64,000 nt of DNA from an uncultured delta proteobacterium (GTDB taxonomy: Bacteria; Desulfobacterota; Binatia; UBA9968): contig CAVYTU010000011.1 of NCBI GenBank assembly GCA_963771465.1, forward strand, positions 192,001-256,000, in the 5' to 3' direction. This document shows positions 3,019 through 50,858 of the stretch, piece after piece. The notes below the pieces were generated by a model. That model had not been told where the DNA came from and made no database searches. It was given only the letters and a program-made list of their open reading frames with translations. The position numbers and the translations under genes were made by a program. How positions within the stretch are numbered: the first letter of the stretch is position 1; each line of letters begins with the position of its first letter.

Positions 3019-3046
3019 AACTACAGAAGGTACAAAGATCACTGAG
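3019..3046. repeat. Degenerate 9-bp-periodic repeat resembling the left end of the GxxExxY element
   Basis: AACTACAGAAGGTACAAAGATCACTGAG versus CACCACGAAGGACACGAAGGTCACGAAG; bracketed by two TCGGATTCGGAG copies. Confidence 0.4.
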
Positions 3047-3123
3047 AAAGAGGGTTCGGATTCGGAGAATTAGCCGCAAAGAGCGCAAAAAAATTGAATT
3101 AGTAGCTGCGACCACCTGTCGTC

Positions 3124-4268: not shown

Positions 4269-4315
4269 TTCACTGCGAAAACGAAAGTTCGTGCTCTTCG
4301 AGTCTTTCGTGATGA
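4269..4315. repeat. Gene-less miniature copy of the 9-bp-periodic inverted-repeat element
   Basis: TTCACTGCGAAAACGAAAG followed by TTCGTGCTC TTCGAGTCT TTCGTGATGA; resembles the ends at 45047-45075 and 45465-45493. Confidence 0.6.
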
Positions 4316-4348
4316 GTAATAATCTGCATTTAGTTTGAGAAACTTACG

Positions 4349-39900: not shown

Positions 39901-42900
39901 TATCCACGTTCAAAACATGATGGCAGAGAGTGAACAGGACTTTGCCGATGCCTGGCGCACTGACGAGCGCCTAGGAATTCGCACATCGCTCGCGGTACCG
40001 CTGTTGCGCGAAGGCGTCGCCGTCGGCGCGATAATGATCCGCCGTACGGAAGTCCGGCCGTTCAGCGAAAAGCAGATCGCACTGCTGCAAACCTTCGCCG
40101 ACCAAGCAGTCATCGCCATCGAGAACGTGCGCTTATTCAAGGAACTCGGCGAGCGCAACGCGGAATTGCGCGAGGCTCTGGAGCATCAGACGGCGACGGC
40201 CGAGGTGCTTGGCATCATCAGCCGCTCGCCGACGGACGTGCAGCCGATCCTCGACGCCATCGTCGAGAGCGCCGCGCGGGTTTGTGGGATAGACGACGCG
40301 GTGCTGCGGCTTCGCGAGGGCGACACGATGACGGTGCGGGCTCATTTCGGACCCATACCGACTGGCCGTCCCCAGGTCGGCGTTGATGAGGCACAGTATC
40401 GTTGGATCCAGCGAGCGGGGCGCGCTCCATATTCCGGATCTCCACGCGCAGAATGAATTCCCAGGGGTAGGTTCCGCTGGATATCGTACCTATTTGGCCG
40501 TTCCTCTTCTCCAGCAGCGGCAACTCATCGGCGTCCTGGCCGCGCGCCGCGTCGACGTGCACCCATTCACGCCGGCGCAGATCAAGCTGCTTGAAACCTT
40601 CGCCGATCAGGCCGTGATCGCCATCGAGAACGTGCGGCTGTTCCAAGAGCTTACAGAATCGTTGGAGCAGCAAACTGCGACGAGTCAAATCTTGGGCGTG
40701 ATCGCCAGCTCGCCGACGGACATCCAACCCGTACTGGACACGATCGCAGCAAGCGCCGCGCAAATATGCGGTGCGGACGATGCCGTCATCCGGCTTGTTG
40801 AAGGTAATGTCCTTTGCTTGAGAGCACACCAGGGTTCCATCCCATCTTTTTCACAAGCGCATGGAGCCGAGTCCGATTCCCTCGTTCGTGGTCGCGAGTG
40901 GATACCCGGCCGAGCGGTGCTCGATCGAGAGACGATTCATATTCATGACATTGCGGCAGTTGAAAATGAGTTTCCGGAGACGCCGCGAGAGCCAGGCGGG
41001 CAGGGGTTCGCACGGCCCTCGCTGCACCGCTACTTCGCGAAGGCGCTGCGATCGGTGTAATTTTCATTCGACGAACCGAAGTCAACCCATTTACCGATAA
41101 ACAGATATCACTGCTGAAAACCTTCGCCGACCAAGCCGTGATCGCGATCGAAAATGTGCGGCTGTTTCAAGGAACTCGGCGAGCGCAACGCGGAATTGCG
41201 CGAGGCGCTGGAGCATCAGACGGCGACGGCCGAGGTGCTCGGCATCATCAGCCGCTCGCCGACGGACGTGCAGCCGGTTCTCGACGCCATCGTCGAGAGC
41301 GCCGCCCGGGTTTGTGGGATTGATGACGTGGTGTTGCGACTCCGCGAGGGCAACGCTATGGTTTCGCGGGCTCATTTTGGTTCCATACCCATGGGCCGCA
41401 TCGAGATCAGTATGGATGAGCCACAGTTTCGCTGGATGCGCGAGCATGGCACGCTCCACATTCCCGACGTCCGCGCGCAGAACGATTTCCCAATGGTGGG
41501 TTCCGCCGGCAGCTCGCGCACTATGTTGATCGTTCCCCTTCGTCAGCAGGGGGAATTCATTGGAGCACTGACCGCGCGTCGCATCGAGGTGCGCCCCTTC
41601 ACCCCGGCGCAGATCAAGCTTCTTGAAACCTTCGCCGACCAAGCGGTTATCGCAATCGAGAACGTGCGGCTGTTTCAAGAACTCAAAGAGTCATTGGAGC
41701 AGCAGACAGCGACGAGTGAAATCTTGGGTGTCATCGCCAGCTCACCGACAGATATCCAGCCGGTGTTGGATGTGGTCGCAGAAAACGCAGCACGGCTATG
41801 CGATGCAACCGACGCGGTGATTCATCGCATCGATGGCGACCAGCTTCGAGTAGTGGCTAATTTCGGTCCGTTGCCGGGACGTGGAAATCTGCAATCGCTG
41901 CCAATAGACCGTGACTCTATACCCGGCAGAGCCATAATTGACCGGCAAACTTTTCACCTTGATGACCTGGCAGCATTGCCAAAGGATGACCTTCCAGCGG
42001 GCTTTGCCAGAAGTGTCGGTGTTCGGACGGTGCTGGCCACGCCGTTGCTGCGCGAGGGAATTCCCATCGGAGCGATTCATATCCGTCGTATGGAGGTCCG
42101 CCCGTTCACCGAGAAGCAGATCAAACTGCTCGAAACCTTTGCAGCCCAAGCCGTGATCGCCATTGAGAATGTCCGTCTGTTTAAAGAACTCGGCGAGCGC
42201 AACGCGGAATTGCGCGAGGCTCTGGAGCATCAGACGGCGACGGCCGAGGTGCTTGGCATTATCAGCCGCTCGCCGACGGACGTGCAGCCGGTCCTGGACG
42301 CCATCGTCGAGAGCGCCGCGCGGGTTTGCGGGATCGATGACGTGCTGTTGCGACTCAACGAGAACGACTCTATGGTTTCGCGGGCTCATTTTGGTTCCAT
42401 ACCGATTAGCCGCGTCGAGATCGGTATTGATGAGCCACAGATTCACTGGATGCGCGAGCATGGCACGCTGCACATTCCCGACTCTCGCGCGCAGAACGAT
42501 TTTCCAATGTTGGGTGTCGTCGGCGGCTTTCGCACTTTGTTGGCCGTTCCCCTTCGTCAGCAGGGGAAACTCGTTGGATTACTGAACGCGCGTCGCACCG
42601 AGGTGCGCCCCTTCACCCCGGCGCAGATCAAGCTGCTTGAAACCTTCGCCGACCAAGCGGTGATCGCCATCGAGAACGTCCGGCTGTTCCAAGAACTCAC
42701 CGAAGCTTTGGAACAGCAGACTGCGACGAGTGAGAATATTGGGCGTCATCGCCAGCTCACCGACGGATATTCAGCCGGTGCTGGATGTGGTGGCCGAGAA
42801 TGCGGCGCGGCTGTGCGACGCGACTGATGCTCATCATCATTCGCGTCGAGGGCGACATCCTACGAGTCGTCGCACCAATACGGCTCAATGCCGGTGTCGC

Positions 42901-45010
42901 CGAACGTATCTACCACTGAGTCGGGGCATTGCCCGGTGGCCGGGCTATGATCGACCGGCAGACCATTCACATCCATGACATCGCCGCGGAAGTCGAGACC
43001 GAGTTTCCGGAAGGCTAGAGTTGCTCAGCAACGTTCCGGTACTCGCACCGTACTTAACACGCCGTTGCTACGCGAAGGCGTAGCGATTGGTCGATCCTGA
43101 TTCGCCGAACCGAAGTTCGCCCTTTTCAGAGAAACAGATCGCTCTGCTCGAAACATTTGCTGACCAGGCTGTCATCGCCATCGAGAACGTCCGGCTGTTC
43201 AACGAGCTCGATACCCGCAACCGTCAGCTCACCGAAGCGTTGGAGCAGCAGACGGCGACGAGCGAGATCCTGCGCGTGATCGCCAGCTCGCCGACGGATA
43301 TTCAGCCGGTGCTGGATGTGGTGGCGGAAAACGCGGCGAGACTGTGCGACGCACCGATGCTGATATTTACCGTCGTGAAGGCAGCGACTATCGGATCGTG
43401 GCCGCGCGTGGAAATATGCCGATACCTCGGCCGACAGAGGCTCGTACCGCTCATCCGTGGCTTGCCTCCTGGACGAGCGATCGATCGACCGGCAGCCCAT
43501 CCATATTCATGACTGTCGAGTGCGGAAGCTCAGCAGAATTCCCCGAAGCCAAGGCAATGGTCAAAAACCACTCGGTCTCCGGACTGTTCTTGGCCGTGCC
43601 CTTACTTCGTGAAGGCATTGCGATCGGGGCGATCCTAATTCGTCGCAATGAGGTTCGACCTTTCAGCGATAAGCAGATCGCGCTACTCGAAACATTCGCT
43701 GATCAAGCCGTCATCGCCATCGAGAACGTGCGGCTGTTCCAAGAATTGCAAGAGCGAACGCAGCGAACTGATGGAGTCGGTCGAAGAAATGAAAGCGCTG
43801 GGCGAAGTCGGCCAGGCGGTGAGCTCGACGCTCGATCTCGAAACCGTGCTCGAAACCATCGTCGCACGCGCGGTCGATCTGTCGGGAACCGATTGCGGTG
43901 TCATTTACGAGTACGACGAAGCACGCAAGAGTTTTATTTGCGCGCAAGCCACGACATGGAAGCTGAGGCTGTCGAGAGGCTGCGAGCAGGCGCGAATTCG
44001 ATTGAGTGAGAGGCGACTGCGGGTCAAGCGGCGCTCACTCGCGCGCCGGTGCAGAACGCGGATACTTGGATCAGCGTGAGACGTCCGGCTTCGCGCGATC
44101 CGGCCGACTGCTGACGCGGCTCGGTTATCGTTCTCTTCTACCGTGCCGCTCTTGCGCGAGCAGCAGATTGTGGGCGCGTTGACGGTCTGGCGGCGGCAAG
44201 TCGGGGAATTCGATCCCGAAGTCGATGAATCTGCTGCAAACCTTCGCGACCCAATCGGCTCTGGCGATCCATAACGCGCGGCTGTTCCGCGAGATCGGCG
44301 ACAAAAACCGCGAGATCGAAGCGGCCAATCGGCACAAGTCGGAGTTTCTCGCCAACGTGTCACACGAGCTGCGCACGCCGCTGAACGCGATCATCGGCTT
44401 TTCGGAAGTGCTATTGGAAAAATTCTTCGGCGAGCTAAACGACAAGCAGAACGAATATGTCGATGACATTCTTTCTTCCGGGCGCCATTTGCTGTCGCTG
44501 ATCAACGACATCCTCGATCTGTCCAAGGTCGAAGCCGGGCGGATGGAGTTGGAAGTGACGCCCTTTTTCTTGCCGGATGCGATCGAGAACGCGCTACTGC
44601 TCGTGCGCGAGCGCGCCAGCCGGCATGGGATCAAACTTGATCGCGTCGTCGACGACCGCCTCGGCGACTTCACCGGCGACGAGCGCAAGGTGAAACAGAT
44701 TCTCGTCAACCTGCTGACCAACGCGGTAAAGTTCACGCCGGAGGGCGGACAAATTCGGGTGGAAGCTAGATTGGGCGACCGCGCGATAATCGTTTCTGTT
44801 ATCGACACGGGAATTGGCATCGCCAAGGAAGATCAGGAGGCGATCTTCGAAGAGTTCCGCCAAGCCGGCGGCAACTACGCACACAAGCGCGAAGGCACGG
44901 GACTGGGTTTAACTTTGACGAAACGCTTCATCGAAATGCACGGCGGCAAAATCTGGGTCGAGAGCGAGGTGGGGAAAGGAAGTACTTTTACATTCACGTT
45001 ACCGACATAG
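36923..45010 (+). CDS. Giant soluble sensor histidine kinase with 14 tandem GAF domains plus HisKA/HATPase (about 2,700 aa), interrupted by multiple frameshifts after 39670
   Basis: 13 [11 protein letters not shown] GAF ends plus [11 protein letters not shown]; H-box [10 protein letters not shown]-box [21 protein letters not shown]; ORF fragments are collinear across frames. Confidence 0.88.
39125..42345 (+). repeat. Four near-identical ~150-nt intragenic direct repeats at ~1.02-kb spacing
   Basis: GAGCGCAACGC...CTGGAGCATCAGACGGCGAC...AGCCGCTCGCCGACGGACGTGCAGCCG...GACGCCATCGTCGAGAGCGCCGC starting at 39125, 40151, 41181 and 42195. Confidence 0.9.
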
Positions 45011-45046
45011 TGAGTGTGGCAGGTCTGTATGCTGGAAGGACTTATT

Positions 45047-45493
45047 CACCACGAAGGACACGAAGGTCACGAAGGGAAGACAAAGACGATAGTGAAATTT
45101 GATGACTTATCAAACAAGTTCATCGGTTGTGCCATCGAGGTCCACCGCGAGCTTGGGCCTGGTTTGCTTGAATCAACTTACGAACAGTGCCTCGCTTATG
45201 AACTCAACCGAGCCAAGATTCCATTCAAACTTCAAGTGGAGTTGCCCGTTGAGTACAAAGAAATCCGGCTTGACTGTGGATACAGAATTGATCTGCTGGT
45301 CGACGATCGTTTGATCGTTGAATTGAAAAGCGTCGATCAGTTGCTCAAAATTCATGAAGCACAGGTGTTAACCTACATGAAACTCGCTGCGATTGGAGTC
45401 GGCTTACTGATCAACTTTAACGTTGATGTATTGAGAAGAGGTATTAGAAGATTTGTTTTCTGAACCTTCGTGTCCTTCGTGACCTTCGTGGTG
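45047..45493 (+). mobile_element. Putative mobile unit: GxxExxY nuclease gene bounded by 29-bp inverted repeats made of three 9-mers
   Basis: Left CACCACGAAGGACACGAAGGTCACGAAGG (45047-45075); right CCTTCGTGTCCTTCGTGACCTTCGTGGTG (45465-45493); 27/29 complementary; mobility is inferred. Confidence 0.65.
45092..45463 (+). CDS. GxxExxY protein (PD-(D/E)xK nuclease fold, PDDEXK_3)
   Basis: IGCAIEVHRELGPGLLESTYEQCL, RIDLLVDDRLIVELKS, HEAQVLTYMK, GLLINFN; start GTG 45092 or ATG 45029. Confidence 0.93.
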   Translation: MKFDDLSNKFIGCAIEVHRELGPGLLESTYEQCLAYELNRAKIPFKLQVELPVEYKEIRLDCGYRIDLLVDDRLIVELKSVDQLLKIHEAQVLTYMKLAAIGVGLLINFNVDVLRRGIRRFVF

Positions 45494-45558
45494 GACAAAA
45501 TCAAAACACCCGGAGCGATTCTGCTTCACAGTAGACAACCGTGGTCAAGGAGAAGTCC

Positions 45559-45942
45559 GTGGCGAATGAACTGATTTTGATCATCGAGGATAACGAGAAG
45601 AACCGTAAGCTCTGCCGCGATGTGTTGCAGGTGAAAGGTTATCGGACCATCGAGTCTGAGACCGCGGAAATAGGGCTTGATCTCGCGCGCGGTCAAACGC
45701 CGGATTTGATTCTCATGGACATCCAGCTGCCCGGCATGGACGGCATCACGGCGATGAAGCAGCTCAAGGCTGATGCGCAGACGAAAACCATCCCCATCAT
45801 CGCGATCACCGCGTCGGCGATGACCAACAATCGGACAAGTATGCTTGCCGAAGGATTCGACGGCTACCAGACCAAGCCGATCGCGTTGAAAGACTTTCTC
45901 GGCGAAGTGGAACGTGCGCTGGCGGCGCGGGGGAACTCGTAA
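45559..45942 (+). CDS. Single-domain response regulator (DivK/CheY-like)
   Basis: IIEDN, DLILMDIQLPGMDG, ITA, TKP; AAGGAG RBS before GTG. Confidence 0.92.
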   Translation: MANELILIIEDNEKNRKLCRDVLQVKGYRTIESETAEIGLDLARGQTPDLILMDIQLPGMDGITAMKQLKADAQTKTIPIIAITASAMTNNRTSMLAEGFDGYQTKPIALKDFLGEVERALAARGNS

Positions 45943-50720: not shown

Positions 50721-50752
50721 GCACCTCAAAAAACGGAAAACCAATTCCGCAA

Positions 50753-50781
50753 CCTTCGTGTTCTTCGGATCTTGCGTGATG
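50753..50781. repeat. Degenerate copy of the right inverted repeat of the GxxExxY element
   Basis: CCTTCGTGTTCTTCGGATCTTGCGTGATG; 22/29 identical to 45465-45493 by manual alignment. Confidence 0.6.
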
Positions 50782-50858
50782 CGTGCCTTTGACTCCTGGA
50801 CGGGATCTAGCTGCACGACGACTTGCGCCGAGCGGCGAGGTGGAATAACCAAGCTTTC

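Follow-up and report, generated by a model that had tools for sequence, protein, structure and literature searches.

The stretch analysed here (hereafter the window, 64,000 nt of DNA from an uncultured delta proteobacterium of soil) corresponds to C11:192001-256000 of an assembly of 6.9 Mb and 19 contigs (genome label G000). It raises the question of why a small nuclease gene, enclosed by two inverted arrays of short iterated repeats, should lie between a sensor kinase gene and the gene of its response regulator. An initial annotation had regarded this unit as an autonomous selfish element, whose GxxExxY nuclease recognises the repeats and spreads itself together with gene-less derivatives. 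The unit is a single gene-bearing copy (447 bp) of a palindromic repeat family, and it is almost certainly a real composite element that is conserved across phyla. By analogy, we read it as working like the REPIN-RAYT system, with a PD-(D/E)xK nuclease replacing the tyrosine transposase. In REPIN-RAYT, a tyrosine transposase associated with repetitive extragenic palindromic (REP) sequences is flanked by such sequences, and the REP repeats are dispersed as hairpin doublets.

The left arm (45045..45075, forward strand) consists of TTCAC at 45045-49 and three CACGAAGG units at 45050-57, 45059-66 and 45068-75, spaced with a 9-bp period by the single bases A and T. The right arm (45465..45495, reverse strand) has three CCTTCGTG units, the reverse complement of the left units, at 45465-72, 45474-81 and 45483-90, and then GTGGA. 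Arms of 34 nt (45042-45075 and 45465-45498), 88% complementary and 389 nt apart, were recovered by an inverted-repeat search, and the iterated left arm and its reverse complement from 45465, as first described, were confirmed. A two-unit pattern occurred four times in the window against 0.07 expected, a number reached by 0/100 shuffles. The enclosed gene (45092..45463, forward strand) encodes 123 aa, with a GTG start and a TGA stop at 45461-63, and the right arm starts one base past this stop codon. The start is conserved among relatives as (G/A)TG AAR TTT GA, so the gene is 45092-45463 and both arms are outside the protein; the 'HHEGHEGHE' N-terminus of the first translation had rightly been suspected to be translated repeat. 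GC content was 0.42-0.48 inside the element and 0.52-0.65 outside, in line with the AT-richer unit that had been noticed between the kinase stop at 45010 and the regulator at 45559.

The family assignment was confirmed by matches of the open reading frame (ORF) to PF13366 (PDDEXK_3; 1.9e-43, 148 bits, cut-off 22) and TIGR04256 (GxxExxY; 2.4e-44, 150.4 bits, cut-off 35). PF13366 was its only match when transposase families, PF05635 and PF01797 were also considered. The GxxExxY motif of the window protein reads GLLESTY, and the catalytic set comprises E27, D67 and E77-x-K79. Among 85 sequences, G22, G24, E27, Y30 and D67 were invariant, and E77 and K79 nearly so. An AlphaFold2 model based on these 85 sequences (pLDDT 96.3) confidently predicted a PD-(D/E)xK-type fold. 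The closest structures were PD-(D/E)xK proteins, namely the restriction-endonuclease-like 3ijm (Z 7.7) and the BpuSI nuclease domain (Z 7.6), followed by Cas4 SSO0001 (Z 7.4) and Hjc (Z 6.1); all structural matches are middling (below Z 8) and thus support the general fold alone. Foldseek with the predicted model returned 0 matches at E ≤ 0.001, and a sequence-profile search of the PDB 0 matches at E ≤ 1.

The window gene is the only PF13366 copy in the whole genome. A motif search of the genome identified 81 arm-like arrays, made up of 30 inverted pairs and 21 singles, and an nhmmer profile built on the short pairs identified 49 palindrome loci, of which 23 are full-length. (Screening for such arrays with TRF lacked sensitivity, giving 16 pairs where the motif search gave 30 for this family alone.) About 48 copies are gene-less hairpins of ~75 bp with a ~22-nt loop of the form TTCGGA…AT-rich…TCCGAAC, and their ends, TTCACCAC…GTGGTGAA, are the same as those of the window copy. 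The 23 full copies begin with TTCAC followed by CACGAAGG and finish with CCTTCGTG followed by GTGAA; the true ends are uncertain because a weak A-rich/T-rich symmetry reaches past the model. Among the 49 palindromes, the window copy alone carries a gene, placed in the loop position. The MITE-like (miniature inverted-repeat transposable element) copies that had been postulated at the outset thus do exist, the window copy being counted among the 49. Full-length copies share copy-specific asymmetries of the arms (left GAAGGA / GAAGAG / GAAGT; right CCCTTCGTGT…GATCTTCGTG), which indicates that the gene-less palindromes descend from one master sequence. Between species the palindromes are 88-98% identical and their flanking genes 72-89%. 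One orthologous gene-less palindrome lies between the same two genes in this genome (L179, G000:C13:23037-24310) and in a relative (L186, G045:C50), with CACGAAG units in the former and CACAGAG/CACAAAG in both arms in the latter. This difference in both arms is a concerted change. The GxxExxY gene was not found in G045 with the query used.

PF13366 was present in 20/24 same-genus genomes with 1-5 matches each, and inverted repeats scoring ≥14 with iterated units surrounded the gene in 21/26 same-genus or same-order loci. The arm unit varies between paralogs in these relatives (CACGAAG, CGCAAAG, CACAGAG, CGCAGAG and CACAAAG). For a wider comparison, the best 80 of at least 600 PF13366 loci from collections with one genome per species were kept (far loci). 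They span Desulfobacterales, Planctomycetota, Omnitrophota, Verrucomicrobiota, Bacteroidota, Acidobacteriota, Chloroflexota, cyanobacteria and others, and protein identity between phyla reaches 74%, so that horizontal transfer is frequent. A flanking inverted repeat scoring ≥14 was found in 42/79 of these best loci. Arrays of the core CRYNRAG within 200 nt, sense upstream and antisense downstream, were found in 57/80, compared with 0/71 in the distal flanks of the same loci. Distal flanks served as the control because the mismatched-pair null for GxxExxY loci was inflated by unrelated loci sharing units. Whether homologs generally lack such arms had been raised initially, and these counts show the opposite, gene and arms behaving as one unit in relatives and far loci alike.

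The build of the element is consistent across these loci: arrays usually have three units each, the 8-10-bp units share the core C-R-Y-N-R-A-G, and the outermost one is usually preceded by AC to give (TT)CACC, so that the element ends (TT)CACC…/…GGTG(AA). The same build was seen in a record of the cultured Bacteroides finegoldii, between radA and an FAD-dependent gene, with the arms TTCACCACAGAGG-A-CGCAGAGG-A-CACGGAGG … CTCTGTGACCTCTGTGTCCTCTGTGGTGAA. A crude ORF heuristic gave the neighbours mostly the same orientation as the gene (39 vs 7 upstream, 33 vs 9 downstream), and stops or frameshifts were present in 4/80 far copies and in several in-genus copies. Phage records contained no homolog, and plasmid records contained one in 8/72,556 cases, mostly megaplasmids and all typed as non-mobilizable. 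PF13366 and the four-helix-bundle family PF05635, to which we return below, were each found in 0/11 genomes of one family of the same order (f3; relatives G026-G040). Both are common in families f1 and f2, which indicates that the element types co-occur at the family level.

Unit type was then compared with the protein tree, which comprised 99 rows, 87 of them labelled; stop-bearing loci (four far ones, with in-frame stops, and one near) were left out, as were the two loci of genome G005. On this tree unit type changed 31 times, compared with 51.05 ± 2.06 changes in 300 shuffles (minimum 44), and clades mixing phyla share one unit type, e.g. CATGAAG in Methylococcaceae, Verrucomicrobiales and Caldilineaceae. 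Kin share labels, and the tree result therefore shows co-inheritance and not co-evolution. In 56 loci all units of both arms were of one type, and the two arms agreed by 0.86-1.00 in core positions, compared with 0.71-0.76 in the spacers; the unit cores matter more than pairing by itself.

Dispersed repeats were found to match the genome's own gene. In five distant genomes, whose arm types were assigned before dimers were counted, the commonest of four unit types was in 5/5 cases the type flanking the genome's own gene. Cognate unit dimers numbered 5 (CACGAAG, G047), 29 (CACGGAG, G049), 77 (CACAGAG, G050), 3 (CGCAGAG, G051) and 25 (CGCAGAG, G048; backwards-pattern control 9), and non-cognate counts were all ≤2. 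Within the genus, exact three-unit CACGAAG arms were counted per genome, and type-1 genes were defined by ≥76% identity. Eight genomes with an intact type-1 gene had 8, 42, 43, 113, 120, 152, 206 and 257 such arms, twenty genomes without an intact type-1 gene had 0-58 (median 6.5), and three with broken type-1 copies had 32, 99 and 123. G005 is one of the eight intact type-1 genomes, and the conclusions are independent of it. As a separate observation, the CACGGAG dimers of the complete 8.1-Mb Saprospiraceae chromosome (G049:C1, reached via locus L130) were strand-biased, with 26 forward and 3 reverse, the dimers elsewhere being balanced; they may represent direct arrays or repeats in clusters.

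Several features of the element recall REPIN-RAYT: a low-copy gene is enclosed by a repeat in inverted orientation, of which tens to hundreds of copies are dispersed extragenically as hairpin doublets, and inheritance at a fixed site is largely vertical. Gene types also seem to go with repeat types of their own, and repeat populations tend to be small in genomes lacking the gene, with exceptions (G006, G020, G044) and among genomes that are kin. The enclosed gene differs, being a PD-(D/E)xK nuclease (PF13366) and not an HUH/Y1 transposase (PF01797); the two Y1_Tnp (PF01797) genes of the genome are located elsewhere and have no such arms, their best flanking inverted-repeat scores being 7-8. 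Unlike in REPIN-RAYT, GxxExxY proteins of different phyla share up to 74% identity. The arms, too, are tandem 8-10-bp units ending in CACC and not a single REP stem with a GTAG or CGTC tag (PMC3733652).

In the mechanism that we propose, the low-copy nuclease would recognise the repeated units both in its own arms and in the palindromes without a gene, probably in a folded-back state as hairpins or cruciforms. The number of three units per arm suggests that the protein may act as a multimer. It would cut the folded units, and host replication or repair would then maintain and multiply the short palindromes. The gene-bearing copy would pass mostly vertically within its operon and rely on read-through transcription for its expression. 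In the RNA, the arms would form a ~29-bp stem with single mismatches, a likely substrate of RNase III that may limit expression, as for the intervening sequences (IVS) of 23S rRNA. A promoter and terminator scan of the element was not above shuffles (2 promoter-like sites vs 0.8 ± 1.1 expected; 0 terminators). Binding, cleavage, the copying mechanism, mobility and RNase III processing are steps that we infer. For action of the nuclease on cognate units, and for its sustaining the palindromes that lack a gene, the case is one of association; this best reading seems to us about evenly poised between true and false.

A number of observations weigh against this proposal. No transposase or recombinase was seen in or beside the unit among the window ORFs, target-site duplications (2-5-nt direct repeats at either end of the model) were found in 0/23 full copies, and no paralogous empty site was found among the 49 loci; the absence of visible transposase, recombinase and target-site duplication had already been remarked upon in the initial annotation. 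We know of no cut-and-join or strand-transfer chemistry for a lone PD-(D/E)xK enzyme. The type-1 gene occupies the same kinase-regulator spacer in G000, G003 and G008, and this, together with the orthologous palindrome of G000 and G045, points to mostly vertical inheritance. The correspondence between gene and arm number has exceptions: G006 has two intact type-1 genes yet 8 arms only, G047 has the gene yet 5 unit dimers only, and, with no intact type-1 gene, G020, G044, G024 and G022 still have 39-123 arms. Same-genus genomes are kin, moreover, and the contrast in arm counts may be due to shared ancestry. Covariation between protein residues and unit bases, proposed initially as a check, was rejected as evidence: Fisher p values went down to 5e-8, but only 1-2 independent pairs fell on supported branches, so the comparison had no power. 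Finally, all 5/5 PF05635 ('23S rRNA IVS protein') genes of the genome (C9:290171-290485, C18:5490-5804, C17:495712-496023, C17:1040062-1040265 and C5:66925-67149) are likewise enclosed by iterated inverted arms, and these genes encode four-helix-bundle proteins that are not nucleases, so that a nuclease is not required for the architecture. Of the autonomous selfish element first envisaged, the gene-less copies and the tracking of protein tree and host repeats by unit type have stood, whereas autonomy and mobility remain conjectural.

The PF05635 genes lead to a rival explanation that we hold to be unlikely, though not lightly set aside, in which the unit is an RNA element similar to the IVS of 23S rRNA. 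The arms would then act on the transcript only, the stem being cut by RNase III or stabilising or silencing the mRNA, the nuclease would be a passenger with another target (e.g. foreign DNA), and the palindromes would be decayed copies or independent REP-like repeats. According to the accessible parts of PMC4990558, the Coxiella IVS is 428-444 nt long, has a 28-bp terminal stem, is excised by RNase III and carries tandem GACAGAT heptamers ahead of a ~120-aa S23p ORF; its origin is there termed unclear and its mobility is unexplained. As far as that source goes, the ORF-bearing IVS of Coxiella and Leptospira (S23p/PF05635) shares with our element a length of ~430-450 nt, a terminal stem, a ~120-aa ORF and tandem short repeats on the 5' side of the ORF, and the build of the two matches. 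Architecture common to four-helix-bundle genes also favours such a reading, as PF05635 genes bear iterated arms outside rRNA both in this genome and in relatives. In relatives, 19/26 PF05635 loci had arms scoring ≥14, mostly heptamers, a count for which there is no valid null, the mismatched-pair null, with its maximum of 114, being unusable owing to overlaps and orthology among some of the loci. Each of the five PF05635 genes of G000 has its own unit (GTTCAA-type, CGTGATCGTG, AGTGCTG, AATGGAG and one A/T-rich); the AATGGAG arm type had 37 dispersed matches in the genome, compared with 55 for CACGAAG. The arms of PF05635 and GxxExxY genes thus differ in their units, and each protein family has its own arm 'grammar'.

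At the RNA level, the arms pair in both the minimum-free-energy and the centroid fold (-160.2 kcal/mol, z = -5.7), the gene is co-oriented with neighbouring genes, as described above, and a contig from a soil RNA library spans 45067-45743, that is the gene, the right arm and the start of the regulator, a weak indication given that the contig shows no ends and that DNA may be present in such libraries. Set against this, 32 of the arm mismatches in the 56 loci would be G·U on the sense RNA and 33 on the antisense strand, and these equal counts give no sign of strand-specific RNA selection. Rfam returned nothing for the element at E ≤ 10 save a chance match to the MS2 hairpin (11.6 bits) and nothing at the gathering score for the best 80 far loci, 0/80 of which were in or beside rRNA. 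The window element differs from the rRNA IVS in lying between protein genes, with no rRNA match in the window stretch, in its PF13366 protein, and in its 8-10-bp units with a conserved core in place of varied heptamers. A stem alone would also leave unexplained the uniformity of units within arms, the conservation of the CRYNRAG core and CACC end across phyla, and the match of dispersed repeats to the genome's own gene.

A second rival, which we consider improbable, takes the palindromes as primary and the nuclease gene as a homing gene that cuts gene-less loops and is copied in by recombinational repair. As with free-standing homing endonuclease genes, a small nuclease gene lies within a repeated sequence that it might itself target; apart from the gene in the exact place of its loop, the palindrome is a standard one, and different elements fill the same spacers in relatives. 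This last point was seen at the kinase-regulator spacer, which in the window lies between the C-terminus of a histidine kinase (HisKA and HATPase_c; 44225..45010, forward strand) and a receiver-domain response regulator (45559..45942, forward strand), the start of the latter agreeing with the ATG-GCT-AAT starts in relatives. In nine other genomes this spacer holds a type-2 gene (41-47% identical) with CGCAAAG/CGCCAAG arms, damaged in G041 by an in-frame stop and in G012 by a split into two pieces. In G020 (L033, C27) the spacer contains a GxxExxY copy that is decayed and chimeric, combining both arm types: a CGCAAAG-type arm and start codon followed by a type-1-like N-terminus on the left, and a CTTCGTG…GTGGTGAA arm plus a CGCAAAG-type arm on the right, the frame being broken by two TGA. 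Gene-less remnants remain in G004, G011 and G045, and paralogous kinase-regulator pairs in G043 and G016 hold PF05635 genes inside other iterated arms. Stable synteny of the gene in this operon, also raised initially, is not general, with another paralog or remnants in some relatives, but does apply to G003 and G008.

The site of type-1 genes also varies with the species (kinase-regulator spacer, CoA-transferase pair and others), seven other genomes having theirs between two CoA-transferase-like genes; the corresponding site of G000 is a 92-nt spacer without a gene, and a paralog of it has no spacer. Each occupied site has its own protein clade on the tree, however, which fits few old insertions followed by vertical descent. 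Homing would also have to account for one gene beside ~48 unoccupied palindromes, or one or two genes beside up to 257 arms in relatives, with arms that give just ~30 bp of homology per side. Unlike known free-standing homing endonuclease genes, the element involves no intron or intein, and no polymorphism between empty and filled sites was found in metagenome contigs or among the 49 palindrome loci. Joints in metagenome and metatranscriptome contigs that skip 377-394 nt between the arms were examined as candidates for excision and rejected, as they carry other loop letters, extend only 18-33 nt on a side and derive from other gene-less palindromes of the community. As observations in their own right, the kinase-regulator spacer and its paralogs (window 45010-45559; loci L031-L060) form a hot spot across the genus, and PF05635 matches lie directly downstream of the regulator gene in G019, G020, G004 and G015.

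A regulatory feature, in which the units would serve the two-component operon as operators or attenuators and the small gene would be an insertion unrelated to them, would fit the position between a kinase and its regulator and the Shine-Dalgarno-like AAGG / GAGG in the units, and is nevertheless most improbable given the same arms and gene family beside unrelated genes in many phyla (e.g. radA and an FAD-dependent gene in Bacteroides), the ~48 copies elsewhere in the genome, and other paralogous kinase-regulator pairs with 21-90-nt spacers and no such arms.

Like MITEs with an autonomous parent, and like orphan palindromic repeats such as Correia or ERIC elements, the family has one longer gene-bearing copy and many short inverted-repeat copies with the same ends, which are intergenic and often within operons. 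It departs from them in the absence of a DDE or serine/tyrosine recombinase and of target-site duplications in the 23 full copies, and in arms that are internally iterated. The function of GxxExxY / PDDEXK_3 is listed as 'Unknown' in the one survey found to include the family (PMC3424549), and flanking repeats are not described for the family in the accessible parts of PMC3424549, PMC8934634 and PMC11270868. No prior description of the gene-repeat pairing was found in the literature, Rfam or the PDB, the scope of the search lying outside subscription journals, supplements and the curators' notes of NCBIfam/TIGRFAM. The initial suggestion of an undescribed system holds to that extent; it is qualified by a build that is also that of the ORF-bearing 23S rRNA IVS, as portrayed in the accessible parts of PMC4990558.

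More broadly, and as a tentative proposal that as a whole is rather less probable than its negation, the GxxExxY and four-helix-bundle (S23p) elements could belong together, as two lineages, in a so far unrecognised class of bacterial replicators. In such a class, a gene for a small nucleic-acid-binding protein would lie within inverted arrays of its own binding units and seed gene-less hairpins; the classical ORF-bearing 23S rRNA IVS would be members that landed in rRNA, and with the GxxExxY nuclease a new enzyme outside the HUH group would be at work in maintaining or multiplying palindromic repeats. Through the pairing itself, a large orphan family (at least 600 loci) gains a defined DNA partner, inverted CRYNRAG arrays matched to protein clade, and the GxxExxY / PDDEXK_3 family its first testable role, with the element present also in cultured, tractable bacteria such as Bacteroides finegoldii. 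The pairing bears on what makes or maintains abundant palindromic repeats in genomes without a RAYT partner, and on the origin of ORF-bearing rRNA intervening sequences. If the protein reads the units sequence-specifically, their natural diversity would constitute a ready-made specificity series.

Three further stretches of the window had been put forward as degenerate arms (at 3019, 4269 and 50753), a suggestion that proved weak. The first (3019..3098, forward strand) is weak and was recognised by eye, with TACAGAAG, TACAAAG, CACTGAG and GGTTCGGA followed by CGCAAAG-like units. The second (4269..4316, no strand assigned) is a weak, degenerate short palindrome of CGAAAG/CTTTCG-like units, and the third (50745..50785, reverse strand) a weak, degenerate solo stretch resembling a right arm, CCTTCGTGTTCTTCGGATCTTGCGTGATG; each of these two has 3 mismatches to the two-unit pattern. 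With 3 mismatches allowed, the only matches were at 4295 and 50753, compared with a chance expectation of 0.73 per window, and the nhmmer palindrome model matched none of the stretches at 3019, 4269 and 50753.

Some minor observations concern the repeats and the upstream neighbour. In soil and rhizosphere metagenomes and one metatranscriptome (runs X1, X2, X3 and X8), depth summed over contigs was 20-890 over the arms (45028-45109 and 45438-45519), compared with 2-17 over the gene, which indicates that the arm repeats are abundant in those communities and present in RNA-library contigs. Outside the window, at G000:C11:124035-126368, inverted TTGAACG-type 9-mer arrays surround two tandem paralogous genes of ~350 aa, apparently a further iterated-palindrome family that is abundant in this genome. 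The upstream sensor kinase is annotated as several consecutive ORFs (41154-42827, 43087-43512, 43344-44009 and 44225-45010), and the region 41154-45010 holds repeated, near-identical modules, which suggests either a long multi-module sensor with frame breaks or a misassembly in internal repeats.

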